Shown here: piece after piece, positions 1,356-19,414 of the stretch | Position numbering within the stretch: the stretch's first letter is position 1 | Layout: each line of letters starts with the position of its first letter | Virus record (IMG/VR): IMGVR_UViG_2529292911_000011 | Direction: 5' to 3' (one strand) | DNA: 19,414 bases | Origin: a virus | Taxonomy: Duplodnaviria; Heunggongvirae; Uroviricota; Caudoviricetes | Notes under the pieces: model-generated | Database searches by the model: none | The model's input: only the letters and a program-made list of their open reading frames with translations | What the model was told of the DNA's origin: nothing | Program-made: the position numbers and the translations under genes

Positions 1356-1887
1356 ATGAAAAAACTACCACCAAATCTCTTTTTCCGACTTAATAGAGCA
1401 GCAAATTTATTAGAAATAGAAGTCGATGATCTTCTACTTATGGGAGTATCAGGCTCTATATTTTTGAGCACAATAATTCACCAGTATGAAGGCGTACTCT
1501 ATCAAGCGGGAAACTTGCCACCAGACCACGGCAGCAAAGACATAGAAAACTTATTATTTGGTTCTATTATTTCTACTAGAGAAGATACCGAAAGATATCT
1601 AAATGAAGGTGTTTTCGATGGTATGAAGTGCTTAGCAAGTGGATTATGGCACGTTCCTAGTGATTTCATTGCTTCCCTTGCAGGGGTTAAGAGAGCCCCT
1701 GACATTCCACTCATATTCTCACCAGCATATATAAAAAAAGAACTAGATATCACATCAGGACGTTACTTTTTCTACGATTTTCGCGAACATGATACCACCG
1801 TATCGTCTGTGGAAGATTTGTATATATCAAGACCGTGGGTTGAATATATAGCTGAAAGCATGGATAAAAATCAGCCAATACCCAGCA
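1356..1887 (+). pseudogene. 5' fragment (177 codons) of an AT-rich gene of unknown function, interrupted by IS10
   Basis: ATG at 1356 with upstream 'aaaaggtga'. The reading frame runs into the IS10 inside end at 1888 and terminates at 1922 within IS-derived sequence. Removing the IS and one copy of the target duplication joins it in frame to 3226-3539, giving a 281-codon ORF. Markedly AT-rich by eye relative to the integrase. Confidence 0.7.
1879..1887. repeat. 9-bp target site duplication (TACCCAGCA), left copy
   Basis: Identical 9-mer directly abuts both IS10 termini (1879-1887 and 3217-3225); 9 bp is the duplication length IS10 makes. Confidence 0.9.
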
Positions 1888-3216
1888 CTGAGAGATCCCC
1901 TCATAATTTCCCCAAAGCGTAACCATGTGTGAATAAATTTTGAGCTAGTAGGGTTGCAGCCACGAGTAAGTCTTCCCTTGTTATTGTGTAGCCAGAATGC
2001 CGCAAAACTTCCATGCCTAAGCGAACTGTTGAGAGTACGTTTCGATTTCTGACTGTGTTAGCCTGGAAGTGCTTGTCCCAACCTTGTTTCTGAGCATGAA
2101 CGCCCGCAAGCCAACATGTTAGTTGAAGCATCAGGGCGATTAGCAGCATGATATCAAAACGCTCTGAGCTGCTCGTTCGGCTATGGCGTAGGCCTAGTCC
2201 GTAGGCAGGACTTTTCAAGTCTCGGAAGGTTTCTTCAATCTGCATTCGCTTCGAATAGATATTAACAAGTTGTTTGGGTGTTCGAATTTCAACAGGTAAG
2301 TTAGTTGCTAGAACCCATGGCTCCTTTGCCGACGCTGAGTAGATTTTAGGTGACGGGTGGTGACAATGAGTCCGTGTCGAGCGCTGATTTTTTCGGCCTT
2401 TAGAGCGAGATTTATACAATAGAATTTGGCATGAGATTGGATTGCTTTTAGTCAGCCTCTTATAGCCTAAAGTCTTTGAGTGACTAGATGACATATCATG
2501 TAAGTTGCTGATAGGTTTCCAGTTTTCCGCTCCTAGGTCTGCATATTGTACTTTTCCTCTTACTCGACTTAACCAGTACCAACCCAGCTTCTCAACGGAT
2601 TTATACCATGGCACTTTAAAGCCAGCATCACTGACAATGAGCGGTGTGGTGTTACTCGGTAGAATGCTCGCAAGGTCGGCTAGAAATTGGTCATGAGCTT
2701 TCTTTGAACATTGCTCTGAAAGCGGGAACGCTTTCTCATAAAGAGTAACAGAACGACCGTGTAGTGCGACTGAAGCTCGCAATACCATAAGTCGTTTTTG
2801 CTCACGAATATCAGACCAGTCAACAAGTACAATGGGCATCGTATTGCCCGAACAGATAAAGCTAGCATGCCAACGGTATACAGCGAGTCGCTCTTTGTGG
2901 AGGTGACGATTACCTAACAATCGGTCGATTCGTTTGATGTTATGTTTTGTTCTCGCTTTGGTTGGCAGGTTACGGCCAAGTTCGGTAAGAGTGAGAGTTT
3001 TACAGTCAAGTAATGCGTGGCAAGCCAACGTTAAGCTGTTGAGTCGTTTTAAGTGTAATTCGGGGCAGAATTGGTAAAGAGAGTCGTGTAAAATATCGAG
3101 TTCGCACATCTTGTTGTCTGATTATTGATTTTTCGCGAAACCATTTGATCATATGACAAGATGTGTATCCACCTTAACTTAATGATTTTTACCAAAATCA
3201 TTAGGGGATTCATCAG
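1888..3216 (-). mobile_element. IS10 insertion sequence, complete copy (1329 bp)
   Basis: Inside end 'CTGAGAGATCCCCTCATAATTTCCCC' at 1888; outside end (reverse complement of 'CTGATGAATCCCCTAATGATTTTGGTAAAAATCATTAAG') ending at 3216; full-length transposase between them; flanked by a 9-bp direct repeat. Length is exactly 1329 bp. Single copy, no tet genes, so not a composite Tn10. Confidence 0.95.
1901..3109 (-). CDS. IS10 transposase
   Basis: 402-aa ORF 'MCELDILHDSLYQFCPELHLKRLNSLTLACHALL...' that I recognise as the IS10/Tn10 (IS4-family) transposase; lies entirely inside the IS10 ends. Confidence 0.95.
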   Translation of the reverse strand: MCELDILHDSLYQFCPELHLKRLNSLTLACHALLDCKTLTLTELGRNLPTKARTKHNIKRIDRLLGNRHLHKERLAVYRWHASFICSGNTMPIVLVDWSDIREQKRLMVLRASVALHGRSVTLYEKAFPLSEQCSKKAHDQFLADLASILPSNTTPLIVSDAGFKVPWYKSVEKLGWYWLSRVRGKVQYADLGAENWKPISNLHDMSSSHSKTLGYKRLTKSNPISCQILLYKSRSKGRKNQRSTRTHCHHPSPKIYSASAKEPWVLATNLPVEIRTPKQLVNIYSKRMQIEETFRDLKSPAYGLGLRHSRTSSSERFDIMLLIALMLQLTCWLAGVHAQKQGWDKHFQANTVRNRNVLSTVRLGMEVLRHSGYTITREDLLVAATLLAQNLFTHGYALGKL

Positions 3217-3651: not shown

Positions 3652-3855
3652 ATGAACACCGACACGATTCCTACAAAAGGCTATATCAGACGCTTTCGCC
3701 TGGCTGAATTGCTGGGCGTTAGTGTATCCACCATCGACCGTAAAGTAAGAAACGGTTCACTACCACGTCCGGTAAAGCTGGGAGAAAAAATAACTGCGTT
3801 TGATGCGGTTGAGATTCACAACTGGCTGGCAGAACGCCGCGGGAAGGTGGCCTGA
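3652..3855 (+). CDS. alpA: AlpA-family transcriptional regulator (phage-type HTH)
   Basis: 67 aa; 'RLAELLGVSVSTIDRKVRNGSLPRPVKLGEKITAFDAVEIHNWL' matches the AlpA helix-turn-helix pattern; SD 'AAGAGG' upstream; positioned downstream of the integrase as in P4-type islands. Confidence 0.85.
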   Translation: MNTDTIPTKGYIRRFRLAELLGVSVSTIDRKVRNGSLPRPVKLGEKITAFDAVEIHNWLAERRGKVA

Positions 3856-4286
3856 TGGAAAAGAAAAACCGCCCATTACAGGCGGCTAATTCAGATACTC
3901 GCGTATCTGATGTTACGCCCCTTACAAAATCCCTTCAAGCACCAAAGCGCACACCGAAAAAGCATCGTGCCAGAGTCTATATGCTGCGTACTGGTATAGA
4001 GGGATGGACAGAAAATGACATTCTTCGCTACTGCCGTCTGTCTTCTGGTCGTAACTATGCAACAGAGTTAGAACGCCAGCTTGGAATCACTCTGGAGCGT
4101 ATCGACGAAAAGAATCCTGATGGTATCGGAACACACCTTCGCTACCGTTTCTCCTGCCGCGGTGATGTTCTGAAAGTGATCACTCATATTAACCATCTTG
4201 CGAACATAAATGATCACAACGGACTTTCTCAGCAGGAAATTGCCGACATTCTGAAACTCTACCCGGACGCGTTTAACGCCGCCTAA
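3855..4286 (+). CDS. Hypothetical protein (143 aa), translationally coupled to alpA
   Basis: Start overlaps the alpA stop (TGATG). Basic N-terminus. No family recognised. Confidence 0.6.
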   Translation: MEKKNRPLQAANSDTRVSDVTPLTKSLQAPKRTPKKHRARVYMLRTGIEGWTENDILRYCRLSSGRNYATELERQLGITLERIDEKNPDGIGTHLRYRFSCRGDVLKVITHINHLANINDHNGLSQQEIADILKLYPDAFNAA

Positions 4287-5132: not shown

Positions 5133-5307
5133 GCCAACAGGAACACCACAACCACAAAAACGCTACAAAGATGCCCACGGAGCACTCGTTACTGTCGAAA
5201 GCGTGTCTCACAACCGAGTGACGTTTTATCGCGACGGGTATCAATCGCCATGCGTACAACCGCTGGCACGTTTCATGAAGGAGTTCGCGGAGGTTAACAA
5301 ATGCTAA
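5125..5307 (+). CDS. Small protein (60 aa), possibly DUF4222-like
   Basis: ATG at 5125 preceded by SD 'GGAGGTGG' (5113-5120); the 89-aa track ORF from 5038 is probably an over-extension. 'RYKDAHGALVTVESVSHNRVTFYRDGYQSPCVQPLARF' resembles small prophage proteins annotated DUF4222 from memory. Confidence 0.5.
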   Translation: MSKPTGTPQPQKRYKDAHGALVTVESVSHNRVTFYRDGYQSPCVQPLARFMKEFAEVNKC

Positions 5308-6329
5308 CCGTCCAGAAGAAGACATTTTCACTGGCAGGTATGTCGCCAAAATCCAGCAATATGACGGCAAAGTCAGGCATTAATACAGCAGATGCAAGCA
5401 AAGTTTATCATTTGCTGGTGGTCGGAACGGATGCCTTAACCATACCAGAAATCTCGGGCGATGATATTAGCATTGAGAAGGTCAGCGGCTGCGCCAGAAA
5501 ATTTCTGGTCGTAGATGATGTCTTCCGCTCGTGTAGTGACTCCACAAAAACATTCGTCCACGTGCGTGACGTTAACGAAATGAGCGCGATGTACTGTGCA
5601 TCTGGTGCTTCCAATACTGAGTTTTCGGAGTCCATAAAAAAGAGCTTGCCGTTATGCGGCAACACGGTTTATGGTTATAAGGCACCTCATAAAACGGGTG
5701 CCGGGATTGGCCTCCCGCTGACAATCGAGGCGATACATGACGCGCCAGCGTCTTTTTTTGTATCGGCGCACACGCACACCTTATCAATGGTGGGCTGTAT
5801 GGGGCTACCTTCGGGTAGGCTGGTTTCCTTGATTGCCAGTAAGGCCAACTCCGTACAGTCCACCGCCAGCAAGATTGGTCTCTTGGGCGGTGGCTATAAA
5901 CCATCAATCAAGGAGGCTGCCACATGCTGGCTACTACCCCTACCCCAAAACCGCAATTTATCTGGATTATCGCCGCAGTTCGCCGCGATTGCCCGACAAT
6001 TACCGCCAAAATTCATCATATTGCTGCCGAGTCTGAACGCGATGCTCGCCGTTCTCTGGTGCGCGATCACGTCTGCTTTTTTGCTGGTCGTATCCGCATG
6101 GAGGTGGCACATGATTAAAACCTACGATGTGCATATGGATCCCCTCGAACGCACAAGCCAGATCATCACACTGACAGAAGTGATTAACGACATTCTGGTG
6201 AGCAACTCTCCCTCACGAGACGAAAGACTGAAGGCGTTACTCGCGATATTGGATCTCGCCGTTCGTGACGTTCATTTCCTGCTGGAAGGTGGACAAATGC
6301 CATGCAAAACGGGGGCAACCAATGAATAA
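5301..6329 (+). CDS. Stop-free 342-codon frame of uncertain coding status; its 3' 73 codons (from ATG 6111) are the best-supported part
   Basis: ATG at 5301 overlaps the upstream stop (ATGCTAA). The frame is open for 1029 nt. An in-frame ATG at 6111 has a strong SD 'GGAGGTGG' (6101-6108). An out-of-frame ORF with its own strong SD (5924-6118) sits inside it, so the 5301-6110 part may be non-coding or an overlapping gene. Confidence 0.3.
5924..6118 (+). CDS. Small protein (64 aa), possibly Icd-like host cell division inhibitor
   Basis: Consensus SD 'AGGAGG' (5911-5916) 7 nt before ATG 5924; stop overlaps ATG 6111 (ATGATTAA). '[27 protein letters not shown]' resembles prophage proteins annotated Icd-like, from memory only. 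Confidence 0.45.
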   Translation: MLATTPTPKPQFIWIIAAVRRDCPTITAKIHHIAAESERDARRSLVRDHVCFFAGRIRMEVAHD

Positions 6330-7601: not shown

Positions 7602-10358
7602 ATGCGAAACATTGATCTTATCCGTCAGGTTATCAGTGCGTCTGAAAACAACTGGCCTCATGTGCTGGGCTGCCTGAACATAAATGTCCCTGACTCTCCG
7701 CGCCGTCATGCTCCCTGCCCTGCATGTGGGGGCAAAGATCGATTCCGGTTCGATGACAACGGGCGCGGTAGCTTCATCTGTAATCAGTGCGGCGCTGGTG
7801 ATGGGCTGGATTTAATTAAACGCGTAAATAACTGCGACACAACAGAGGCGGCGCTTCTTGCCGCTGATGTTCTGGGTATTGATTACCGGACAACGGAAAC
7901 ACCAGAAGCCACCAGCCAGAAACGGGAACAACTGGAAACCGAGCGCCAGCGACGCGAACAGGAGCGCCTGAAAAGGGCAGAGAAGGACGAACAACAAAGA
8001 CGGGATACGTTTTCCCGTCAGTTTGATGACATGCGCAGAAAGGCTGTAAACGGCAAATCTGATTATCTGGTTGCGAAAGGGGTAGGTGATTTTACATTCC
8101 CCGTGTTGCCCGATGGATCTCTGTTGCTGGCGCTGGTGGATAAATCCGGCGCAGTCACAGCAGCACAGACTATTACCTCACATGGTGAAAAAAGACTCCT
8201 GACAGGTTCAGCAAAGCGAGGGGCATATCACGCCATAAACGCACCAGAAACAACACAGAGCATCTTAATCGCAGAAGGGCTGGCAACGGCATTATCTGCC
8301 CATTTAATTCGTCCAGAGGCGCTGACAGTGGCGGCGATTGATGCCGGGAACCTGTTATATGTCGCCCAGGTACTGCGGGATAAATTTCCTTCAGCACAAA
8401 TCATCATTGCTGCGGATAACGACCACAGCGAAGGAAGACAAAACACGGGGAGAATAGCAGCAGAAAAAGCAGCTTTATCTGTTTCTGGATGGGTGGCATT
8501 ACCCCCGACAGATCACAAAGCAGACTGGAATGATTACCACCAAAAACACGGCATTAAATGCGCCACAGAAGCGTTCAATAAGTCAATGTACCAACCACAG
8601 GGTAATGGCGTGAAACAGGAGCCACAGACCATTGAGGGAAGCGATTTTAAGGTTATGGATACCGACCCACTGAAACCAAGAATAGAAAGCCGCGAGGATG
8701 GTATTTATTGGGTATCTCCGAGAGCTGACAGCCAGAGTGGAGAAATCATCAATAACGAAAGCTGGTTATGTTCTCCGTTAAGCGTTATCGGTACTGGCAG
8801 AGACGATAAAGACCAGTATCTCATTCTTCGCTGGCTGTCGTTTGGTTCTGAAACGCCGACAACCGCTGCCATTCCACTGGCTGATATTGGTGAACGTGAA
8901 GGATGGCGCACACTTAAAGCTGGTGGGGTAAATGTCACGACCAAAAGCAGCCTCAGAGCAATACTGGCAGACTGGCTACAACGCAGTGGCTCTCGTGAAT
9001 TGTGGCGTGTTGCTCATGCCACTGGCTGGCAATGCGGAGCGTACATCATGCCTGATGGGGAAATCATCGGAACACCTGAAAATCCTGTGCTGTTCAGCGG
9101 GAGAAGCTCAGCCGCAGCCGGATATACCGTCTCAGGGAGCGCGAAAAGCTGGCGTGATAACGTGGCGCGTCTGGCCTTTGGTAACTATTCAATGATGACC
9201 GGGATCGGCGCAGCACTGGCAGCGCCATTGATTGGGCTGGTGGGCGCTGACGGGTTCGGCATTCATTTCTATGAGCAGTCGAGCGCGGGTAAGACCACCA
9301 CGGCAAACGTGGCGAGCAGCTTATACGGCAACCCTGATTTACTGCGGCTGACGTGGTACGGAACCGCGCTGGGGCTGGCAAATGAGGCCGCCGCCCACAA
9401 TGACGGATTAATGCCGCTTGATGAAGTTGGTCAGGGCGCTGATCCTGTCAGCGTTTCACAGTCTGCCTATGCGTTATTTAACGGTGTAGGGAAACTGCAA
9501 GGCGCTAAAGATGGTGGAAACCGTGATCTAAAACGCTGGCGTACAGTGGCAATCAGCACCGGAGAAATGGATTTAGAAACATTTATCGCTACTTCTGGGC
9601 GAAAAACCAAAGCCGGGCAACTGGTGCGACTGCTGAATATTCCGTTGAGTAAAGCAGTACGCTTTCACGATTACCAGAACGGAAAACAGCACGCAGACGC
9701 ACTGAAAGACGCTTACCAGCATCACCACGGCGCAGCCGGGCGTGAGTGGATTAAATGGCTGGCAGACCACCAGCAACAGGCTATTAAAACTGTTCGTGAT
9801 TGCGAAAGCAGATGGAGAAGCCTGATCCCATCCGATTATGGTGAGCAGGTTCACCGTGTAGCCGCGCGATTTGCCATTCTGGAGGCAGCATTGCTGTTAG
9901 GCGAAGTTGTAACAGGCTGGGATGCTCAGACATGCCGTGATGCGATACAGCACAGCTATAACGCATGGTTGCGCGAGTTCGGCACAGGTAACAAAGAACA
10001 TCAGCAGATTATTGAACAAACGGAGGCATTTCTTAATGCCTATGGGCTTAGCCGTTTTGCACCATTTCCATACAGCCCGGCAGATTTGCCCATCAAAGAT
10101 TTAGCCGGATACCGTCAGCGTGGAGAACATGACGAAAGCCCAATGATTTTCTACACATTCCCGGCCACATTTGAAAAGGAGATCGCATGTGGTTTCAACG
10201 CAAAACAGTTTGCTGAAGTGTTGAAAAAAGCCGGGATGCTAACCCCACCAAACAGCGGTCGTGGATACCAAAGAAAATCACCACGTATTCAGGGACGACA
10301 AATAAACGTTTATGTACTCAATTACCAGCCAGGAGATTATAACTCATCTGAAGAATGA
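7602..10358 (+). CDS. DNA primase-helicase (N-terminal zinc ribbon + TOPRIM + C-terminal P-loop ATPase), P4 alpha / PICI Pri-Rep type
   Basis: 918 aa. Cys cluster 'CPACGG...CNQCG' near the N-terminus; TOPRIM-like 'LIAEGLATALS' and 'IIAADNDHSEG'; Walker A-like 'YEQSSAGKTT'. Iteron cluster lies immediately downstream. Confidence 0.9.
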   Translation: MRNIDLIRQVISASENNWPHVLGCLNINVPDSPRRHAPCPACGGKDRFRFDDNGRGSFICNQCGAGDGLDLIKRVNNCDTTEAALLAADVLGIDYRTTETPEATSQKREQLETERQRREQERLKRAEKDEQQRRDTFSRQFDDMRRKAVNGKSDYLVAKGVGDFTFPVLPDGSLLLALVDKSGAVTAAQTITSHGEKRLLTGSAKRGAYHAINAPETTQSILIAEGLATALSAHLIRPEALTVAAIDAGNLLYVAQVLRDKFPSAQIIIAADNDHSEGRQNTGRIAAEKAALSVSGWVALPPTDHKADWNDYHQKHGIKCATEAFNKSMYQPQGNGVKQEPQTIEGSDFKVMDTDPLKPRIESREDGIYWVSPRADSQSGEIINNESWLCSPLSVIGTGRDDKDQYLILRWLSFGSETPTTAAIPLADIGEREGWRTLKAGGVNVTTKSSLRAILADWLQRSGSRELWRVAHATGWQCGAYIMPDGEIIGTPENPVLFSGRSSAAAGYTVSGSAKSWRDNVARLAFGNYSMMTGIGAALAAPLIGLVGADGFGIHFYEQSSAGKTTTANVASSLYGNPDLLRLTWYGTALGLANEAAAHNDGLMPLDEVGQGADPVSVSQSAYALFNGVGKLQGAKDGGNRDLKRWRTVAISTGEMDLETFIATSGRKTKAGQLVRLLNIPLSKAVRFHDYQNGKQHADALKDAYQHHHGAAGREWIKWLADHQQQAIKTVRDCESRWRSLIPSDYGEQVHRVAARFAILEAALLLGEVVTGWDAQTCRDAIQHSYNAWLREFGTGNKEHQQIIEQTEAFLNAYGLSRFAPFPYSPADLPIKDLAGYRQRGEHDESPMIFYTFPATFEKEIACGFNAKQFAEVLKKAGMLTPPNSGRGYQRKSPRIQGRQINVYVLNYQPGDYNSSEE

Positions 10359-10370
10359 GCTTCTTCATGT

Positions 10371-10484
10371 GCGTAGAAAAGGTGTTGGTTCAGTTGGTTC
10401 AGTTGGTTCAATTTGCAAAGAGTATTGTTTTGTAAGGATTTTATTCTTTTTATTGAACCAACACTGAACCAACAACACGGTATT
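10371..10484 (+). repeat. Iteron cluster A (putative origin of replication)
   Basis: Three tandem 9-bp 'GTTGGTTCA' repeats (10374-10400), a ~40-bp AT-rich spacer, then three inverted 'TGAACCAAC' copies (10444-10452, 10455-10463, 10476-10484). Sits directly 3' of the primase-helicase. Confidence 0.8.
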
Positions 10485-10813
10485 TTGAACCAACACAATG
10501 TGACTGAATTGATGCGCTCAACACCTGGCTGGCATCAGAGAGTGTTTTACGAGACTTTCGTAAAATCCTGTGTACAAGGGCGTGACGTTTTTGAAAGTGA
10601 GCACTACGAAATTTTCGTAGTTCAGAAAACAGCCCCTGAGAAGTTGTTATGCCTGTTCAGCAAACCATCCGCATAGCTGATCGCGAATCAAATTACCAAT
10701 GGAGCCAGAAGCAAGGGCAGAACTGAAAAGCGCCTGCCGTGAAGAGTAATGCGACACCATAAATATAGTTTTTAGAGTCCATAAAAAACCTGTCAAAACC
10801 TGACACACAGAAC

Positions 10814-10848
10814 GATGCCACCAGCTACTGAGCGGTGGCATTTTTTTG
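10814..10848 (+). terminator. Rho-independent terminator
   Basis: Stem 'TGCCACC' (10816-10822) / 'GGTGGCA' (10834-10840) with an 11-nt loop, followed by TTTTTTT (10841-10847). Confidence 0.7.
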
Positions 10849-10909
10849 TGCTGTTTGTTTCATATTTTGCAATTACGATGATGAATATTGCGATTTGTGA
10901 AACTATAAT

Positions 10910-10929
10910 AACTGTTGTTTTATACAGTT
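10910..10929 (+). promoter_or_regulatory. LexA-box-like site (putative SOS operator) in the cargo operon promoter region
   Basis: 'AACTGTTGTTTTATACAGTT' = CTGT-N8-ACAG with AT-rich centre; 15/20 identical to the box at 18749-18768, including both flanks. Lies between a 'TATAAT' hexamer (10904-10909) and the SD 'AAGGGGG' of the ORF at 10943. Confidence 0.45.
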
Positions 10930-10942
10930 CTAAGGGGGCGTT

Positions 10943-11116
10943 ATGGCTATTTCAGTAAAGCCGGTATTGATAAGTGAGAAGCAAATGGAAGCGATAAAGA
11001 AAATTCAGGAGGAGCAGCGTAAAAAATCAGAGGTAGGAGTTGCGCCAACGATCCACGAAATTGCTCGGGGATTAATGGATAAGGCGCTGGCTTACACTTT
11101 AACTGGACGTGGGTAA
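10943..11116 (+). CDS. Small protein (57 aa), possible ribbon-helix-helix DNA-binding protein
   Basis: Not in the ORF track (under 60 aa). ATG 10943 with SD 'AAGGGGG' (10932-10938). 'KPVLISEKQMEAIKKIQEE...GVAPTIHEIARGLMDKAL' has a strand-helix-loop-helix layout compatible with an Arc/CopG-like fold. Ends 4 nt before the next ATG. Confidence 0.45.
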   Translation: MAISVKPVLISEKQMEAIKKIQEEQRKKSEVGVAPTIHEIARGLMDKALAYTLTGRG

Positions 11117-11120
11117 ATCA

Positions 11121-12587
11121 ATGGCTACGTGGCAACAGGGTATTAATTCTGGTGGTTTTCTGGCTGGCATCGGTACGCAAAATGAGAATGCGCCAAAGGC
11201 AAGCGACATTAACGCAACGCTTGGTCTGATTCGCGAAAACAATGAACTGGCTCGATCAGGTGCAAATAACGTTGCTCTGACAGGTCTTCGTGGTCTGGCT
11301 GGAGTTGCTGATATTTATAAGCAGCAGCAACAGCAGGAGCGTAAAGCGGCATTCCAGAAAGGTTATGCAGATGCTTATGCGTCCGGTGACAGGGAGCAGA
11401 TGCGTAATCTTATTACAGCATTCCCAGAAGAGTTTGAGGAAGTCCGTAAAGGGATGAGTTATGTCGATGATGCTCAAAGGGATGATTATGGCAATCTGGC
11501 GCTCAAAGCACAGGTAGCCTCATCGCTTGGTCCGGGCGCATTTGGCAGGTTCATGATGGATAATGAGCAGGAGATGCGTCGTTTAGGTATCCCTCCAGAA
11601 ACTATTGCTGAAATGCAGGTTAATGACCCGCAGGGCTTCCAGCATTTCGCAGGTAATCTGGCGCTGTTTTCTCTCGGTCATGAGAAGTATTTCGATATCA
11701 AAGATCAAATGGAAAGTCGGGATATTGAGCGTGGCAAGTTGGCAGAGACAATCCGCAGCAATCAGGCTGGTGAAGCACTTCAGGCGAGAGGGCAGGATAT
11801 TAGCCGAGCAAATGCGTTAACGTCAGCATATGCACCAACAGCAGCAATGCAGAATTACAATCAGTACGCGCAAATGTTAAAGGCTGATCCAGAGGGGGCG
11901 GCGGCATTTGCGGCAGCGGCTGGAATTAATACAAACACCAAAAAATTAATGAGTGTTAGAGAAAACGATGATGGCACTGTCACAAAATACTACACAGACG
12001 GAAGTGAAGAGCAGGGAAAACTAAACCAGCCAATATCTGGAGATGGGTTTCGTCCAATAGCTTTGCCAACAGCCCAAAAGATCATGGAAAAGTCGCCAGA
12101 AGGGGCTAAAAAAGCTGCTGGATTTGCATACAGGGTTAGGGATGCTCTTGATTCAATAGATACACTGAAAGACCAGCTTAGCCCACAGCGAGTGGCGATC
12201 ATTAATAATGCTTTGGGTAATGGGACGCTGGCTAACTTAACGCTCAGCCCAGCAGAGCAGCAATACGTTGTTAATGCTAATGACGCAATAATGGCAATAC
12301 TCCGTCAGGAAACAGGGGCAGCTATCGCACCTGCTGAAATGTCAAAATATTATCAAATGTATTTCCCTCAGCCTGGCGACTCCACAAAAACCATTGATAC
12401 CAAGCGCCGGAAGATGGAAAACCAGTTCAATTCGCTGAAAGCTGCTTCTGGTCGAACTTATGATGCTTTGCGGGTTATTTCAGCAGTTGACAGAGGAACT
12501 GCTTCTTCGTCGCAGACATTGCCGCAATCTGAGCAGGTATCACAGCCAGCAGCCAGCAGTAACTTTTCTTCACTATGGGGTGATTAA
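11121..12587 (+). CDS. Hypothetical protein (488 aa), Gln/Ala-rich, function unknown
   Basis: ATG 11121 (the track's GTG at 11109 is an alternative start). Poly-Q stretch 'KQQQQQERK', Ala-rich tracts; no catalytic motif recognised. Stop overlaps the start of the next gene (TAATG). Confidence 0.8.
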   Translation: MATWQQGINSGGFLAGIGTQNENAPKASDINATLGLIRENNELARSGANNVALTGLRGLAGVADIYKQQQQQERKAAFQKGYADAYASGDREQMRNLITAFPEEFEEVRKGMSYVDDAQRDDYGNLALKAQVASSLGPGAFGRFMMDNEQEMRRLGIPPETIAEMQVNDPQGFQHFAGNLALFSLGHEKYFDIKDQMESRDIERGKLAETIRSNQAGEALQARGQDISRANALTSAYAPTAAMQNYNQYAQMLKADPEGAAAFAAAAGINTNTKKLMSVRENDDGTVTKYYTDGSEEQGKLNQPISGDGFRPIALPTAQKIMEKSPEGAKKAAGFAYRVRDALDSIDTLKDQLSPQRVAIINNALGNGTLANLTLSPAEQQYVVNANDAIMAILRQETGAAIAPAEMSKYYQMYFPQPGDSTKTIDTKRRKMENQFNSLKAASGRTYDALRVISAVDRGTASSSQTLPQSEQVSQPAASSNFSSLWGD

Positions 12588-14692
12588 TGGCTAAAGCATG
12601 GAAAGATGTTATCGCCTCTCCACAGTATCAGGCGTTAGCACCAGAACAAAAAGCGCAGGCTCAGGAGCAATACTTCAATGAAGTCGTTGCCCCGCAAGCC
12701 GGAGAAAGTGTAGAGCAGGCTAAGCAGGCTTTTTATGCTGCCTATCCACTACCATCAACGAATGAAATAGACCGATCCCAATCAGCAACTCAAAATATTC
12801 AACATACATCATCTGATAATTCTATTGCGTCAGGGTATGCAAAGTTAGCTACTCAGCAAAGAGAGGGGCTTGAGCGTTCAGCAGAACAGGGAGCCAGTCT
12901 TGGGGCTGCGATGCGCGATGCTATAACAGGCGAAAGCCGAATGACTCCAGAGATGGAGAGACTGCAAAATGTCGACCTTGCCCCAGAGTTAACCTCACTC
13001 AGCATGGATGCTCTAAAAGCTCGATGGTCTCAACTTTTCGGCTCTGACGCATCTCAGGAAAAGATTCTTCAGAGCATGGGAGCGAAATTAAGGCAGGATG
13101 AGAAGGGTAACACTATCGTTTCCCTGCCATCCGGTGATTATGCTCTGAACAAGCCGGGTTTATCGCCGCAAGACGTGGCATCGTTTCTGGCTAATGCGCT
13201 GGCGTTTACACCAGCGGGCAGGGCCGGAACGGTGCTGGGGGCCATAGGGAAATCAGCAGCTACAGATTTAGCACTACAGGGAGCCACCAGCCTCGCTGGT
13301 GGAGAAGATATTGATCCGTTACAAACGGTAATTTCTGCTGGCATTGGTGGTATTGGTAAGGGGCTGGAAAATACAGCGAGTGCGGTTTCGAGGGCTGTTC
13401 GTGGTGATATGTCGCCTGAAGCAAAGGCTGCTGTCGACTTTGCATCGGAAAGAAATCTGCCGTTAATGACCAGTGACATGCTGAAAGATAAAACCTTTAT
13501 GCAGAGTCAGGCTCAGACATTAGGCGAAAGAGTTCCTTTTTTTGGAACCGGTAAGAATCGGCTGAATCAACAACAAGCACGAGAAAATTTAGTCAGAACA
13601 TTTAGCGATGGTCTGGGTGGCATTTCTGATAAACAGCTTTATGAATCTGCGACTAAAGGGCAACAAAAATTCATTGAGGCAGCAGGAAAGCGATATAACC
13701 GCATAATTGACGCTATGGGGGATACCCCTGTCGATCTCTCAAACACGGTAAAAGCTATCGACAATCAGATTGCCGTGTTAAGCCGCCCGGGCAAATCTCA
13801 GGATAGAGCCGCGGTAAAAGTCTTGCAGCAATTTAAAGACGATATCACCAGCGGACCAAATGACCTGCGTCTGGCGAGGGAAAACAGAACCGATCTTCGA
13901 AAGCGATTTATGGCGTCATCTGACACTGTTGATAAAGATACGCTCCAGAAAGCCAGCGATATTATCTACAAGGCATATACGGCGGATATGAAAAAAGCCG
14001 TAGCCAAAAATCTTGGAGCAGACGAAGCTATTAATATGGCAAGGGTTGATCGCTCATGGTCTAAATTCAATGACATGATGGGAAGAACGCGCGTTCAAAA
14101 GGCAATAGCCAGCGGCAAGGCCACGCCTGAGGATGTAACAAAACTTGTTTTTAGCCAAAGCCCATCAGAACGTTCTCAGCTTTACAGGCTTCTGGATGAC
14201 AATGGTAGGCAAAACGCACGAGCAGCCATAGTTCAGAATGCTGTAGATAAGGCGACTGATCCGTCTGGAAATATCAGTGTTGAGAAGTTTATTAATGCGT
14301 TACACCGGAACAGGAAGCAATCAGCAACTTTCTTTAAAGGCATACATGGAAAGGAACTGGACGGCGTTATTAAATACCTCAACGATACAAGACACGCGGC
14401 AAAAGCGAACGTTCAAAACTTAAATGGTCAGCAGCTTTATGGATTGTTAGTTGGTGGTGGCATCATAAACGCAGCAGTATTAGCGGGGATGCTAAAAACG
14501 GCTGCGTTTGTTGTTCCTGCTGCTGGTGCCGTAGGCGGAGCAGCGAAGGCATACGAAAGCCCTGTTATACGAAATGCCTTGTTACGTCTGGCAAATACGC
14601 CAAAAGGTAGCACAGCATATGACAGAGCGATCAGTACGGTCACACAATCACTGACCACAGCAGCACAAGCATCGCAAAAGGAAGCTCAATAA
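12587..14692 (+). CDS. Hypothetical protein (701 aa), helical low-complexity with a C-terminal Gly/Ala-rich hydrophobic segment, function unknown
   Basis: Translationally coupled to the upstream gene. Residues ~617-656 'LYGLLVGGGIINAAVLAGMLKTAAFVVPAAGAVGGAAKAY' (nt ~14435-14554) look like a glycine-zipper/transmembrane segment. No nucleotide-binding or nuclease motif recognised. Confidence 0.85.
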   Translation: MAKAWKDVIASPQYQALAPEQKAQAQEQYFNEVVAPQAGESVEQAKQAFYAAYPLPSTNEIDRSQSATQNIQHTSSDNSIASGYAKLATQQREGLERSAEQGASLGAAMRDAITGESRMTPEMERLQNVDLAPELTSLSMDALKARWSQLFGSDASQEKILQSMGAKLRQDEKGNTIVSLPSGDYALNKPGLSPQDVASFLANALAFTPAGRAGTVLGAIGKSAATDLALQGATSLAGGEDIDPLQTVISAGIGGIGKGLENTASAVSRAVRGDMSPEAKAAVDFASERNLPLMTSDMLKDKTFMQSQAQTLGERVPFFGTGKNRLNQQQARENLVRTFSDGLGGISDKQLYESATKGQQKFIEAAGKRYNRIIDAMGDTPVDLSNTVKAIDNQIAVLSRPGKSQDRAAVKVLQQFKDDITSGPNDLRLARENRTDLRKRFMASSDTVDKDTLQKASDIIYKAYTADMKKAVAKNLGADEAINMARVDRSWSKFNDMMGRTRVQKAIASGKATPEDVTKLVFSQSPSERSQLYRLLDDNGRQNARAAIVQNAVDKATDPSGNISVEKFINALHRNRKQSATFFKGIHGKELDGVIKYLNDTRHAAKANVQNLNGQQLYGLLVGGGIINAAVLAGMLKTAAFVVPAAGAVGGAAKAYESPVIRNALLRLANTPKGSTAYDRAISTVTQSLTTAAQASQKEAQ

Positions 14693-14753
14693 CAGATGGC
14701 CATGGATGGTTGGTTATAATAGTAATTAGTATTTTTTCAAATAGTTATGAACA

Positions 14754-15152
14754 TTAACACTTGCCTTTAACATTGCCGACAAATGAGCCTGTAAATGAGC
14801 CTATATCAGATCGACTAATTGTTCGTGTATGGATCACTTTTCCGTCATTTGAGATTGCCCATGTGACAAGCGTCAGTTGACCATCTCGATAGCTTCTTCC
14901 CATCATGGCATTCGGAGATAGCGGGTAATAATCAATACCTCCACCTATACCATCTTTTGCCAAGATAAGATCCGCCTTCTCTTTACTTATTACCAAATGA
15001 AAGGTATCTGGTATAGATGATAACTTATAGTTATACCCATCTGAACTTGAGGCTTCTTGTCCTTTCAGATCACCAATAATCCAGCATTCAGCGTTCGCTC
15101 CAAAAGAAGCAAATAATAAACCGGAGACAACCAATCGCTTCAATTGATTCAC
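14754..15152 (-). CDS. Small secreted protein with Sec signal peptide (133-aa precursor)
   Basis: GTG start at 15152 with strong SD 'AAGGGAGGG' 5 nt upstream on the minus strand; N-terminus 'MNQLKRLVVSGLLFASFGANA|ECW' is a classic signal peptide with an AxA site. The track's upstream extension to 15278 would bury the signal peptide and is rejected. AT-rich. Mature protein has Cys near both ends. Confidence 0.65.
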   Translation of the reverse strand: MNQLKRLVVSGLLFASFGANAECWIIGDLKGQEASSSDGYNYKLSSIPDTFHLVISKEKADLILAKDGIGGGIDYYPLSPNAMMGRSYRDGQLTLVTWAISNDGKVIHTRTISRSDIGSFTGSFVGNVKGKC

Positions 15153-15291
15153 ACCAACCCTCCCTTTAGCGTTGTTTAGAATGGCAATCATCATATATCC
15201 AAGACATGGCATTTGGTACATAGCTTGGGTCGGGATTTCAAATCCGATCCCCGTTGATGGGGCCGTTACAGTGCGCACATATCCGCTTTAT

Positions 15292-15552
15292 GTGAAACAG
15301 GAAGATTTTTCTGATATCACTGCCACAGCAAAACACCAATTTCGAGACAAGTACGCGTGCGAGGGGTATCAGTTGCAAAAAATTTTGCAACTACGTCCGA
15401 CCAGTATGCACACGATGGCGGGGGGATACCATAAAACTGTTCTCTACATGAGACAGAGTGGTGGTGATGTGTTGATTATCGGCGTATATGCGCACAGGAC
15501 GCGCTATGACGATGTTTTATGCGGGTACACCAATCACATGTATCTGGTGTGA
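15292..15552 (+). CDS. Hypothetical small protein (~86 aa), possibly RelE/ParE-like fold
   Basis: C-terminal 'GGYHKTVLYMRQSGGDVLIIGVYAHRTRYDDV' loosely fits the RelE/ParE core pattern. Start is uncertain (GTG 15292 or 15271; no clear SD). No antitoxin partner seen. Confidence 0.3.
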   Translation: MKQEDFSDITATAKHQFRDKYACEGYQLQKILQLRPTSMHTMAGGYHKTVLYMRQSGGDVLIIGVYAHRTRYDDVLCGYTNHMYLV

Positions 15553-16185
15553 TAAATCGCGTTACATGACCTCTCATGTTGTGCTGGTGGTTATCACGAC
15601 GTTCTGAATCTGGCCTTTGCCTGGTATTTTGCGACAAGTACGCGCGCGTAGCATCGAAATAATCGGATGGCGTATGCTGCTGGTAATATGAAGACCGATA
15701 GCATTAACCGAAAGGAGAAAGACTTCTCGATAACGGCAAGGGGGCTGAATTGCGAGGCGAGATTAAGCAACTGTCTTGAACGTAAAAATCATGGAGCAAC
15801 ATGATGGTACGATTCATTCCATTCTTCGTTCTTTCTGAGCATTGCGTTCAGGCTTAGTCAAAATTAGTGTTGCGAGCGGACCTATTAGTAATTGTTGGTG
15901 CGATGCGCCTGTTATGGATTGTTATGGTTGTGGCAGGCCTGATTAATATCCAGTATGACCACCAGCTATGAGAGGCCACCTCAGTGGTTCGCAGTTGCAG
16001 GTTTGCACTCAGGTTCGCAGGGTTTTGGCTACTTTCACGTGCGAACCTGCAGAATTGCAAAGGACAACTAAGTCCTCTGGCCAACTCCCGGTTTATGAGC
16101 GACACAGTCCGCCTGGCGCATCGTTTTCGTCGAGTGCGCCCATCAGCTTGTCCATGGACTATCCACCACTCGATATTAAAGCTAA

Positions 16186-16371
16186 TCATTGGTTGCCAGC
16201 CCGCGAATCAAGTTTGTTCTGGATCCAAGCTTCAACCTCCTCAAGCGACCATCTAGCTGATCTACCAATTTTAACTGGCTGTGGAAACGTGCCCGTCTTA
16301 ACCCATGAGTAGATTGCCGTTTTCTTGAAGCCCGTTCTGAGCATGACTTCGCTTAATTTGATAAGGCGCAT
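16186..16371 (-). CDS. alpA: AlpA-family transcriptional regulator, second copy in inverted orientation
   Basis: 61 aa 'MRLIKLSEVMLRTGFKKTAIYSWVKTGTFPQPVKIGRSARWSLEEVEAWIQ' is a textbook AlpA HTH pattern. Divergent in sequence from the copy at 3652. Confidence 0.8.
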   Translation of the reverse strand: MRLIKLSEVMLRTGFKKTAIYSWVKTGTFPQPVKIGRSARWSLEEVEAWIQNKLDSRAGNQ

Positions 16372-16623
16372 AGAGGCTCCTCTGCTTTAGATTAAGCATA
16401 GTGACAATCTGGCTTTGGGCGGTATCCAAAAGCGAGGTATCCATGTTGGTATCCACCAAAACGCTGTTTACCAAAAAAGTTACCACCGGAACAGGACATT
16501 TTGAGCTGTAACTTAACACATAGCATATGGAGTTCACGCATAGACTTCACGCACAACGGCTCCGGCCAGTGAAGAATCACCCTGGCTGGCAATATAATGC
16601 CGATCACCATCAGAGGGGAATCC

Positions 16624-16815
16624 ATGACACCACGAGAAATCGAGCTGCTGACCATTGCCAAGCTGGAGCATGACGGCCACCAGCTCAGCCCGGCAGAACT
16701 GCGGGAATTAAGGCGCCAGCTGGCAGAGGGCCCTGTAATAGCCAGGCGGTACCGCGAAATGATGACCAGCCACGCATATCGCTGGAGCAAACCAGCGCCG
16801 CTCCGTGCGCGGTGA
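16624..16815 (+). CDS. Hypothetical small protein (63 aa)
   Basis: ATG 16624 preceded by SD 'GAGGGG'; 'MTPREIELLTIAKLEHDGHQLSPAELRELRRQLAEG...'. Two direct 'TTCACGCA' repeats (16533-16540, 16546-16553) lie upstream. The overlapping minus-strand ORF 16392-16790 is W/R/C-rich and looks spurious. Confidence 0.35.
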   Translation: MTPREIELLTIAKLEHDGHQLSPAELRELRRQLAEGPVIARRYREMMTSHAYRWSKPAPLRAR

Positions 16816-16890
16816 GCAGCACCTAACCAGCACTAGACAAGCCCTGTGCTGGTGGATGTCCCTCATAATTAGCGGTTTTTAAACGGCGTG

Positions 16891-17013
16891 TTGGTTCACG
16901 GCCTCTTTTTGTTGGTTCAAAAATGGGGTGTGTTGGTTCACATTTTGCGAATAATCCTTTTAAAAACAATACTCTTTGCAAATTGAACCAACTGAACCAA
17001 CTGAACCAACACC
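16891..17013 (-). repeat. Iteron cluster B (second ori-like / cis replication region), inverted relative to cluster A
   Basis: On the minus strand: three tandem 'GTTGGTTCA' (plus-strand 'TGAACCAAC' at 16984-17010), an AT-rich spacer, then three dispersed copies (16891-16898, 16912-16919, 16933-16940). Positions 16963-17013 are the exact reverse complement of 10371-10421 (51 bp). Confidence 0.8.
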
Positions 17014-17046
17014 TTTTTGCTTATCTATATAGTCTGAGAGGCAGAA

Positions 17047-17334
17047 ATGATAAGGGACAGGAAAGCTGAAGAGCTGGAGTTAAAAGGGCTATGCCGGAGA
17101 GCTGCCACACGATGGGCAGAAGTCATGACGCTGGCAGATGGCGATAAAGAACGTGAACATGCAGCAAACAGACGCTCTGAATGTATCCGTAGGGCGGCAC
17201 GCCCACCAGCAACTACAGACAGATTCGGAGACTTAAGACAGGCAGTTAAGCGAACGCATTCAGCTCTTGGTATGGATGAGGAAGCGAGAGGGTACTTCAG
17301 GCGTTATCGCGATAAAGATTGCCAGCTACGATAA
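17047..17334 (+). CDS. Hypothetical basic protein (95 aa)
   Basis: ATG 17047 with SD 'GAGAGG'; Arg-rich; immediately downstream of iteron cluster B. No family recognised. Confidence 0.55.
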   Translation: MIRDRKAEELELKGLCRRAATRWAEVMTLADGDKEREHAANRRSECIRRAARPPATTDRFGDLRQAVKRTHSALGMDEEARGYFRRYRDKDCQLR

Positions 17335-18268: not shown

Positions 18269-18286
18269 ATGGAATAAGTAAGCCTA

Positions 18287-18316
18287 AAAAGCTGCCTATC
18301 ATACAGGCAGCTTTTT
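18287..18316. terminator. Rho-independent terminator, potentially bidirectional
   Basis: 'AAAAGCTGCCT-ATCATAC-AGGCAGCTTTTT': 7-bp GC-rich stem flanked by an A-run on the 5' side and a T-run on the 3' side; 19 nt after the stop of the 254-aa ORF. Confidence 0.75.
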
Positions 18317-18627
18317 AGTCCGTTTCCCCATTCTATGTAAATACACTTCCTAAAAATAGCGATTAACTTACCTCTCACAATCAATTTCACGAGCAATACG
18401 CGTGCGCAGTACAACAAGCCTGAACAGGGTTACACACCTCGATCGTGAGCGATGTAGACAATGGCTTTTGACCAAAGCACCAGAAAAAACCGTGTACATA
18501 AGGGTGTACATAATCAAAAAAATCATTAGAAAGAAATCAGCCACAATGCGGCATTGAAGCCAATACTCTACAAACAGATTCAATTGAGTAACTCGTAACA
18601 CTAATTCTTACTTTTCAGCCTTCACAA

Positions 18628-18658
18628 ATGCCGCCCACTCAAACAGAGCGGCATTTTT
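18628..18658 (+). terminator. Orphan rho-independent terminator-like hairpin
   Basis: Stem 'ATGCCGC' (18628-18634) / 'GCGGCAT' (18648-18654), 13-nt loop, T-run 18654-18658. No plus-strand ORF within about 300 bp upstream. Confidence 0.5.
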
Positions 18659-18748
18659 CTTCCCCGCAACTTCAATTCTGTTTTGCGTGCCTGCTCCAGA
18701 TTTTGCGATGTTTTTTTGCCCAGCACACTGAGAACGTGAGATACTCAC

Positions 18749-18768
18749 AACTGTATATAAATACAGTT
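18749..18768 (+). promoter_or_regulatory. LexA box (SOS operator)
   Basis: 'AACTGTATATAAATACAGTT' is a perfect CTGT-N8-ACAG palindrome with AT-rich centre, about 45 bp upstream of the start of the downstream ORF. It matches the dinD SOS box as I remember it. Confidence 0.8.
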
Positions 18769-18811
18769 ACAGATTTACTTTCTTTGCAATCGATATCACA
18801 TGGAGTGGGCA

Positions 18812-19414
18812 ATGAACGAACATCATCAACCTTTTGAAGAGATAAAACTGATTAATGCAAACGGAGCAGAACAATGGTCAGCAAGACAACTTGGGAAACT
18901 ACTGGGTTATTCAGAGTATCGTCACTTTATACCTGTATTAACGCGCGCCAAAGAGGCCTGTGAGAACAGTGGTCACACAATTGATGACCATTTCGAGGAG
19001 ATCCTCGATATGGTCAAAATTGGCTCAAATGCCAAAAGAGCATTAAAAGACATCGTACTCTCCCGCTATGCCTGTTACCTGGTAGTACAAAACGGCGACC
19101 CCGCGAAACCGGTCATTGCGGCAGGGCAGACTTATTTTGCTATCCAGACCCGACGGCAGGAGCTTGCTGACGATGAAGCATTTAAGCAACTTCGTGAAGA
19201 CGAAAAGCGTCTGTTTCTGAGAAATGAGTTGAAAGAACATAACAAACAATTGGTTGAGGCAGCACAGCAAGCTAATACCACACACTTTGACGTGGGTAGC
19301 AAGGTGAGGCAAACCATTCAGGAACTTGGCGGAACCATGCCTGAGGAGTTGCCGACCCCGCAGGTCAGCATCAAGCAGTTGGAAAACAGTGTAAAAATTA
19401 CAGAGAAGAAATAG
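18812..19414 (+). CDS. dinD: DNA-damage-inducible protein, DinD-like
   Basis: ORF ending at a TAG at the window edge. Preferred start is ATG 18812 (GGAG at 18802-18805); the track start is 18800. Identity rests on the LexA box and my recollection of dinD, not on an alignment. My memory is that DinD is longer (~274 aa), so this may be a shorter variant or my memory may be wrong. Confidence 0.6.
   Translation: MNEHHQPFEEIKLINANGAEQWSARQLGKLLGYSEYRHFIPVLTRAKEACENSGHTIDDHFEEILDMVKIGSNAKRALKDIVLSRYACYLVVQNGDPAKPVIAAGQTYFAIQTRRQELADDEAFKQLREDEKRLFLRNELKEHNKQLVEAAQQANTTHFDVGSKVRQTIQELGGTMPEELPTPQVSIKQLENSVKITEKK

Follow-up and report, generated by a model that had tools for sequence, protein, structure and literature searches.

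Mirrored iteron clusters in a satellite island

Why would a small phage satellite carry two copies of what looks like a replication origin, laid out as mirror images with genes between them? The question is raised by IMG/VR virus record IMGVR_UViG_2529292911_000011, a caudoviricete-assigned stretch of 19,414 nucleotides (the whole of which is called the window below), in which two clusters of a 9-bp iteron, here termed modules A and B, bracket a block of cargo genes downstream of a gene for a fused primase-helicase, Pri-Rep. Judged by its gene content, the window is a Gram-negative phage-inducible chromosomal island (PICI) of the EcCIMP1 type, and we consider it probable, from comparison with its relatives, that A and B are two modules of the replication origin of this one island. 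The pair has a common architecture, is conserved, co-varies with Pri-Rep, exists in compact and split forms and shows no inversion isomers in assembled genomes.

The iteron GTTGGTTCA is present in 12 exact copies in the 19.4-kb window against 0.17 expected, a count that none of 200 shuffles reached, and all 12 are confined to the two mirrored clusters. Module A (10377-10496, + strand) starts 26 nt past the pri-rep stop codon, a placement common to all relatives, and is made up of three tandem iterons (10384-10410, +), a spacer of 43-44 nt that is 80% A+T (10411-10453) and three phased iterons on the opposite strand (10454-10462, 10465-10473 and 10486-10494, -; start-to-start distances of 11 and 21 nt). 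Module B (16888-17017, -) is its mirror image, with three phased iterons as + strand copies (16890-16898, 16911-16919 and 16932-16940, spaced by 21 and 21 nt), a spacer of 75% A+T (16941-16983) and three tandem iterons as - strand copies (16984-17010). The innermost iterons of A and B lie 6,395 bp apart, and the outer ends span 6.6 kb. These counts and mapped copies bear out the description of two mirrored clusters in an earlier note on this DNA, made from the letters alone. The identical inverted core that it reported is also real and its right arm was correctly placed, although the core measures 55 nt rather than 51: the left arm (10377-10431, +) is 100% complementary to the right arm (16963-17017, -). 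The left arm had been put at 10371-10421, which is off by 10 nt, as the reverse complement of 16963-17013 is 10381-10431. Similarity between A and B is limited to about 120 bp; outside the 55-nt core the match is confined to the iterons, with no relation between the flanks.

Compact and split origins in relatives

In PICIs and Staphylococcus aureus pathogenicity islands (SaPIs), an origin is defined as two opposed sets of iterons on either side of an AT-rich stretch, directly after pri-rep (PMC6092414). Clusters A and B each fit this definition independently. We collected relatives by querying species-representative genomes with the primase (77 loci) and IMG/VR with the triple iteron (61 stretches), together with several E. 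coli loci, and mapped iterons and marker genes in all of them, about 130 loci from Enterobacterales and IMG/VR with at most 10 kb of downstream DNA (individual loci are given L numbers). Paired arrays, a + tandem followed by a - tandem, number 73, and all are convergent (+++ ... ---). Fifty-six span 140-419 bp and sit directly after one pri-rep; these we call compact. The other 17 span 1.2-10.5 kb; this split form is found in Escherichia, Lonsdalea, Chimaeribacter, Rosenbergiella, Pantoea, Leclercia, Cedecea, Serratia, Erwinia and Citrobacter. Most relatives therefore have both clusters, rather than always the single one that the earlier note had named as counter-evidence to its views. The experimentally validated origin region of EcCICFT073, an island with another type of Pri-Rep, is likewise compact and bipartite: its tandem pairs of TGTCTACC stand in inverted orientation as convergent 'bookends', at a distance of about 225 bp.

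The two forms differ in their second half. The spacer of B is AT-rich and 43-45 nt long in all 17 split origins, whereas the second-half spacer is GC-rich and 33-34 nt long in 24 of 55 compact origins (Fisher p = 3.5e-4 for the comparison, in which the loci are not independent). An AT-rich B in every split origin, set beside a GC-rich second half in many compact ones, suggests that separation of the halves is tolerated only where B is a self-contained unit.

Lonsdalea britannica is polymorphic for the two states. Locus L048 is compact and L015 split, with flanks that are 89-97% identical, and L015 has 5.86 kb in place of about 120 bp in L048. The additional DNA holds a perC-family regulator gene, a small open reading frame (ORF) that we call o57, the cassette and the inner part of B, and its breakpoints fall in A's inner iterons and in B's tandem iterons; the iteron arrays therefore behave like anchors of homology at which cassettes are replaced. 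Lineages also differ in where B lies with respect to perC, o57 and the distal genes, as would be expected if modules had been exchanged repeatedly.

Short motifs accompany the modules. The motif CCTGGCTGGCA (10524-10534, +) lies at the inner edge of the flank of module A, before the cargo, and in the compact origins L006, L012, L026, L038, L048 and L058 it lies between both modules. On the outer side of module B, the conserved motif TTTTTGCTTATCTATATAG (17014-17032, +) lies 15 nt upstream of the start codon of perC, which in the window occupies 17047-17334 (+; Pfam PF06069, E 1e-30), directly downstream of B. We also noted a motif, TCACATRCGTAG, in 10359-10383, between the pri-rep stop and the first tandem iteron, that is conserved across several genera (L006, L012, L026 and L048).

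Some loci have more elaborate layouts. Yersinia pekkanenii L036 carries three complete compact origins within 6 kb (8154-8421, 12736-13003 and 13917-14214), one upstream and two downstream of a primase match that is itself stretched (10001-13866). Module A of Erwinia L064 has seven tandem iteron copies (3988-4050), and six or seven tandem GTTGGTTCA iterons are found in L083/L129, L101 and L122, which are IMG/VR contigs of 30-130 kb; in these large viral contigs, no primase or perC homologue was found near the iteron arrays. Finally, the IMG/VR contigs L112 (2370-5200) and L135 (4720-9300) have two perC genes around one B, or B beside an inverted perC, layouts that suggest further rearrangements or tandem islands.

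An old pair with a lineage-specific patch of identity

If B had been copied from A recently, the two should resemble each other more within an element than between elements. We aligned ten A and ten B modules from ten split lineages in eight genera. Iteron columns are 0.91-1.00 conserved, against 0.47-0.72 between and outside the iterons, and the spacer is 44 nt long in 19 of the 20 modules (54 nt in one A), with 68-89% A+T. Module B of the window is orthologous to the B of nine other split lineages. Mean identity is 0.758 among A modules and 0.743 among B modules; for A against the reverse complement of B, the values are 0.698 when both come from one element and 0.701 when they come from different ones. 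Because A-A and B-B identities exceed those of A with reversed B, and the latter are equal within and between elements, the pair is evidently old and each module has been inherited as such. On the higher A-A and B-B identities, B is neither a duplicate of recent date nor what is left of a second island, and the equality within and between elements rules out general concerted evolution of the two.

The long identical core is a different matter. In Escherichia elements, the identity between A and B extends over 48-55 nt; in Leclercia-type elements (L057, L113 and L133), iterons alone are common to A and B. A T/C variant in the spacer matches in both copies of each element, being C at TTTGCAAAG in the window and T in NC101 and L138. 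On this comparison, the perfect 55-nt identity is not a functional requirement; its most likely source is gene conversion that has taken place occasionally between A and B in the Escherichia lineage.

Co-variation of iterons with the Pri-Rep tail

The product of pri-rep (7602-10358, +) is a 918-residue protein with Zn-ribbon, Toprim and DUF927 domains (Pfam PF08273, PF13362 and PF06048; PHROG 1139, DNA primase). Its residues 402-813 match PDB entry 8tch, 'Pathogenicity island protein' (SaPI Rep), with an E value of 1e-11. Seven types of iteron occur among the relatives (GTTGGTTCA, GTTGTCTCA, GTCGGTTCA, ACGGGTTAY, CTTRTCCCA, GGTCGGGTA and GTGGGTTAT), and both halves of every element share one type; in Citrobacter L065, CTTRTCCCA is found in both modules, 7.6 kb apart. 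When primases are grouped by iteron type, the excess of within-type over between-type identity peaks in the last 60 alignment columns, at 0.16. In ten columns, the GTTGTCTCA-type primases share a fixed residue that none of the 18 primases of the GTTGGTTCA type has, and five of the ten fall at residues 891-896 (R-K-S-P-R-I in the window; codons at 10272-10289, +), a candidate determinant of iteron specificity. In this region QRKSPRI of the GTTGGTTCA type becomes QGRV-RE in the GTTGTCTCA type, and Ser893 is replaced by Thr in four of five examined proteins from elements with GTCGGTTCA iterons. Iteron type is not tracked by integrase or alpA type.

In SaPI Reps, iterons are read by a C-terminal winged helix. 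Taken together, the co-variation of the C-terminus with the iterons, the lack of tracking by integrase and alpA, and the SaPI precedent make the C-terminus of Pri-Rep, with residues 891-896 as candidates, the likely iteron reader. The earlier note had proposed binding assays with the N-terminal region of the primase; the co-variation favours the other end of the protein.

A proposed mechanism and the role of module B

We propose that Pri-Rep, which would be self-loading, reads the 9-bp iterons via its C-terminal tail, assembles on both sides of the AT-rich spacer and melts it. In the common form of the family, the modules abut to give a composite origin of about 260 bp after pri-rep, with the tandem iterons as its bookends. 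In the lineage of the window, a helper-exploitation cassette comprising P22-type ejection genes and a second alpA, alpA_1, lies between the modules, so that on this view the origin is split by 6.4 kb. The most likely arrangement would then be two self-contained initiation units, perhaps cooperating by looping mediated by Pri-Rep in the manner of P4 ori and crr, and we infer that both modules act in replication.

Several observations weigh against this account. The case for binding of Pri-Rep to A or B consists of the co-variation and of homology to SaPI Reps, and a model of the C-terminal 168 residues built from the single sequence is unusable (mean predicted local distance difference test score of 39), so that a winged-helix fold there is putative. 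About 16 of some 60 species-level loci show module A alone within 10 kb downstream; in these, B may be farther away or dispensable. The GC-rich second half of many compact origins cannot be an independent unwinding site, and B may therefore have started out in the ancestor as an accessory and not as an initiator. Finally, in most loci, those of lineages with other iteron types among them, the outer tandem iterons of B are followed by variants of a conserved TATA-rich motif, TTTTGCTTATATATAG, and in many loci a gene starts 33-63 nt downstream, an arrangement that fits a regulatory role too.

The last two points favour the main rival explanation, in which B has an accessory role in copy control or as the operator of distal genes. 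On that explanation, B would not be an initiation site; it would be an array that titrates Pri-Rep or regulates, whether by serving the promoter of perC and the distal genes as an operator or by handcuffing copy control like that of P1 incA, and only A would fire. Iteron plasmids offer a general precedent for titrating or copy-control arrays, and a GC-rich spacer of 33-34 nt is unlikely to melt. However, split origins without exception have the full mirrored design with an AT-rich spacer in B, precisely the layout by which an origin is defined, and a scan with the sigma-70 consensus found no promoter at A or B in the window. The gene downstream of B also varies (perC, a 61-aa ORF or others), and in L015, L022, L025, L028 and L030 perC follows A instead. 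We therefore regard a purely regulatory B as unlikely and favour the reading of A and B as two modules of one origin.

Two elements or an invertible segment

Could B instead be the trace of another island? The earlier note had raised the possibility of a junction between two related elements; on this view a related island, since decayed, would have been inserted next to the first, and each would have contributed one origin. Tandem islands and decayed ones do occur at these sites: a truncated island in E. coli EC14 retains cluster B alone, and a fragment of an Arm-domain integrase adjoins the NC101 island. Against this, the similarity of A and B ends within about 120 bp, no remnant of a second primase, int or alpA flanks B, and A and B are separately orthologous across eight genera. 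Moreover, in 56 relatives one pri-rep is followed by both modules within 419 bp, and the whole segment in the window is inside one island between yicC and yicG. Homology limited to the modules, together with their adjacency in relatives, argues strongly against two abutting elements, and we consider such a junction very improbable.

The other suggestion was an invertible segment bounded by the inverted cores, in which recombination between the two would flip the cargo operon; such a segment could act as a switch. A perfect inverted repeat of 55 nt is long enough for RecA-dependent exchange, and the spacer variants, on which A and B of the same element agree, show that sequence has been exchanged between the copies. 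However, no dedicated invertase or recombinase gene lies beside the repeats: the only recombinases in the window are int and the transposase of an IS10 insertion, with no gene for a serine invertase or a second tyrosine recombinase. We searched 5,426 complete E. coli genomes with the synthetic left and right junctions that inversion at the core should create; at a coverage of at least 80%, inverted junctions were found in 0 of 509 and 0 of 576 genomes, the best matches (57% and 59%) being the native half. In every split locus examined from GTDB and IMG/VR, cargo and pri-rep point in the same direction, so that of the two orientations that the earlier note proposed to look for among related islands one alone is represented, and the long identical core is not conserved, as the Leclercia-type loci attest. 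With no invertase, no inverted junction in assembled genomes and a uniform orientation of the cargo, an invertible switch is the least probable of these explanations and can be set aside at the level of assembled genomes.

Comparison with known replication systems

The window shares several features with the origins of PICIs and SaPIs such as EcCICFT073, SaPIbov1, SaPI1 and SaPI5. Its origin lies 3' of pri-rep and has short opposed iterons around an AT-rich region; its initiator appears to be a self-loading helicase, the helicase part matching the SaPI Rep structure; and the co-variation of the Pri-Rep C-terminus with the iterons is in line with the C-terminal winged-helix reader of SaPIs. It differs in that the origin unit is doubled as mirror images with 6.4 kb of genes between, whereas the published descriptions that we found give one iteron/AT-rich/iteron unit, with no second module or split.

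A second parallel is the pair formed by the origin (ori) and cis-replication region (crr) of satellite P4, with its alpha primase-helicase, reportedly described by Flensburg and Calendar in 1987 and by Ziegelin and colleagues in 1993 and 1995. P4 alpha is a fused primase-helicase that presumably reads its iterons via a C-terminal domain, and the P4 iteron is TGTTCACC. As in P4, two iteron clusters of the same type lie kilobases apart on a small satellite replicon. Unlike in P4, the iteron is GTTGGTTCA, and in the family of the window the clusters are adjacent in most relatives, each being an origin-like unit in full. Pfam and PHROG gave no matches in the window to the genes typical of P4 (alpha, sid, psu, delta, epsilon and cos), and its gene order is that of a PICI, and Pri-Rep has no sequence match to P4 alpha structures at E <= 0.01; P4- or P1-like traits of the window are limited to an Ash-family ORF and a region of C4 and isrK RNAs. 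The likeness to the P4 pair drawn by the earlier note thus holds in part. Both modules are conserved across genera and co-vary with the Pri-Rep C-terminus, and a pair resembling ori and crr is supported by analogy; the element itself is a PICI and not a P4-like satellite.

Iteron plasmids are a more distant parallel. In R6K, with its gamma and its alpha and beta origins, and in P1, with incC and incA, several iteron clusters serve one initiator, which can loop or handcuff them over a distance. The window resembles them in having several clusters for one initiator on one replicon. It differs in its initiator, a helicase-primase rather than a winged-helix dimer of the RepA or pi type, and in its clusters, which are full origin units in mirror image, with no partition or copy-control genes evident. 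The Hin, Gin and Cin systems, shufflons and the fim switch likewise have inverted repeats that bracket a gene-containing segment. Unlike them, the window has no dedicated recombinase and no second orientation in the genomes examined, and its repeats are putative initiator-binding iteron arrays.

The host island and its cargo

The host site of the island is between yicC and yicG, which bracket the same island in E. coli Ecol_244 and EC14; sister islands with the same replication module (NC101, CH10268 and MP1) are found at tRNA-Thr, and no tRNA gene was found in the window. EcCIMP1, the island of E. coli MP1, is a close relative of the window element. Its excision and its transfer by the P22-like phage Kapi1 have been demonstrated experimentally, and the same paper mentions 'DNA transfer' genes as well as alpA_1, a second alpA in the opposite orientation; origin and iterons go unmentioned there (PMC11773190).

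The window element shows every PICI feature that can be assessed from sequence. A tyrosine integrase gene at one end (int, 1-1260; Arm-DNA-bind_3, Phage_int_M and Phage_integrase domains) goes with a specific chromosomal site, an alpA-family regulator (3652-3855; Phage_AlpA, PF05930) lies downstream of int, and transcription is mostly rightward, with nearly all long ORFs on the + strand. Then comes pri-rep, followed directly by the iteron/AT-rich/iteron origin that is module A. The island measures about 18.5 kb with IS10 included, within the PICI size range of about 10-20 kb, and no capsid, tail, terminase or lysis domains are among the Pfam and PHROG matches of the window proteins. P22-type ejection-protein genes are present, as in EcCIMP1.

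An int-alpA RNA (Rfam RF02996) lies at 1269-1335. The IS10 insertion (1356-3180), directly after int, carries a DDE_Tnp_1 transposase gene (1901-3109, -) and an Rfam match to RNA-OUT (3102-3171), and truncates a hypothetical gene whose intact copy in Ecol_244 encodes 281 aa (L001, 8695-9540). Between alpA and pri-rep, the gene order is AntA and then Ash. The ORF annotated as an 'ash family protein' (5301-6329) contains a Pfam Ash domain, and inside it, overlapping that domain, are isrK (5682-5758) and a C4 antisense RNA (5783-5870), both above the Rfam gathering score; the ORF may be a P1- or P4-like region of RNA-based immunity or anti-termination that has been mis-annotated as a protein. At the other end, a 254-aa ORF follows perC. 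The final ORFs, a 69-aa ORF and a Bro-N protein at 18628-19414, correspond to the dinD region, the interval from island to yicG in EC14 (L003), which places the island's right end somewhere from about 18270 to 18630.

The intervening segment (10497-16887, +; 6.4 kb; Pfam PF16928, PHROGs 917, 770 and 66) contains both the cargo operon and the second alpA that the earlier note had placed there. It begins with o57 (10943-11116), a P22 gp20-like ejection protein (11109-12587) and a gp16-like DNA-transfer/transglycosylase protein (12587-14692); PF16928 and PHROGs 917 and 770 are the matches of these ejection-protein genes. A 174-aa ORF (14754-15278, -), alpA_1, an excisionase- or alpA-like helix-turn-helix gene (16189-16371, -), and a 72-aa ORF (16597-16815) follow. 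The cargo DNA is 87-92% identical to P22-like phages over about 1.5 kb, and homologous cassettes are found in L002, L004, L005, L034 and L138. In L005, L138 and NC101, a DUF2824 gene and a 225-aa gene lie upstream of the ejection genes; the window island has neither. A satellite with its own ejection proteins is unusual, and the EcCIMP1 paper only touches on the point.

The stretch upstream of isrK (5546-5641) and the non-coding DNA after module A (10562-10788) have two short motifs in common, GCGTGACGTT...GAAA(G)TGAGC and AGTTTTYRGAGTCCATAAAAAA (91% identical), which may be a common operator or RNA target. Alignment of the two regions gives a shared motif of only 35-45 nt, and an Rfam search of the 450-bp non-coding stretch after A for a second isrK- or C4-like RNA, at E <= 1, returned only a chance match to a long non-coding RNA.

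Implications

The iteron origins of PICIs are known. What is new here is a doubled origin whose halves may be either adjacent or split, with genes for helper exploitation lying between the split ones; no doubled or split PICI origin is described in the literature that we searched. These findings should be of moderate interest to those studying satellites and replication initiation, for several reasons. First, they locate helper-exploitation cargo in widespread, poorly annotated enterobacterial satellites that are scored as 'Type C' PICIs, and they provide a signature for finding such islands, namely tandem iterons in convergent arrangement whose sequence varies together with the tail of Pri-Rep. 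Second, six residues, 891-896, are nominated as a testable code for iteron specificity. Third, the split origins offer a natural system for communication over a distance by self-loading helicase initiators, studied so far mainly with P4 ori and crr and with R6K. They also hold a caution, as long inverted repeats around genes need not mean a switch.

More broadly, this family shows that an origin unit can occur twice, in mirror image, and that the pair remains under selection with up to about 10 kb of genes between its halves. We tentatively extend this to a more specific idea, which we regard as doubtful but worth stating: the mirrored halves may be both a distance-independent pair looped by Pri-Rep and a set of recombination anchors, making the centre of the origin an exchange site for helper-specific modules, here the P22-type ejection proteins. 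If the halves do serve as anchors, the architecture of the origin would direct the exchange of cassettes among these islands, and if convergent initiation units do bracket the cassette, its selective amplification during helper infection might follow.

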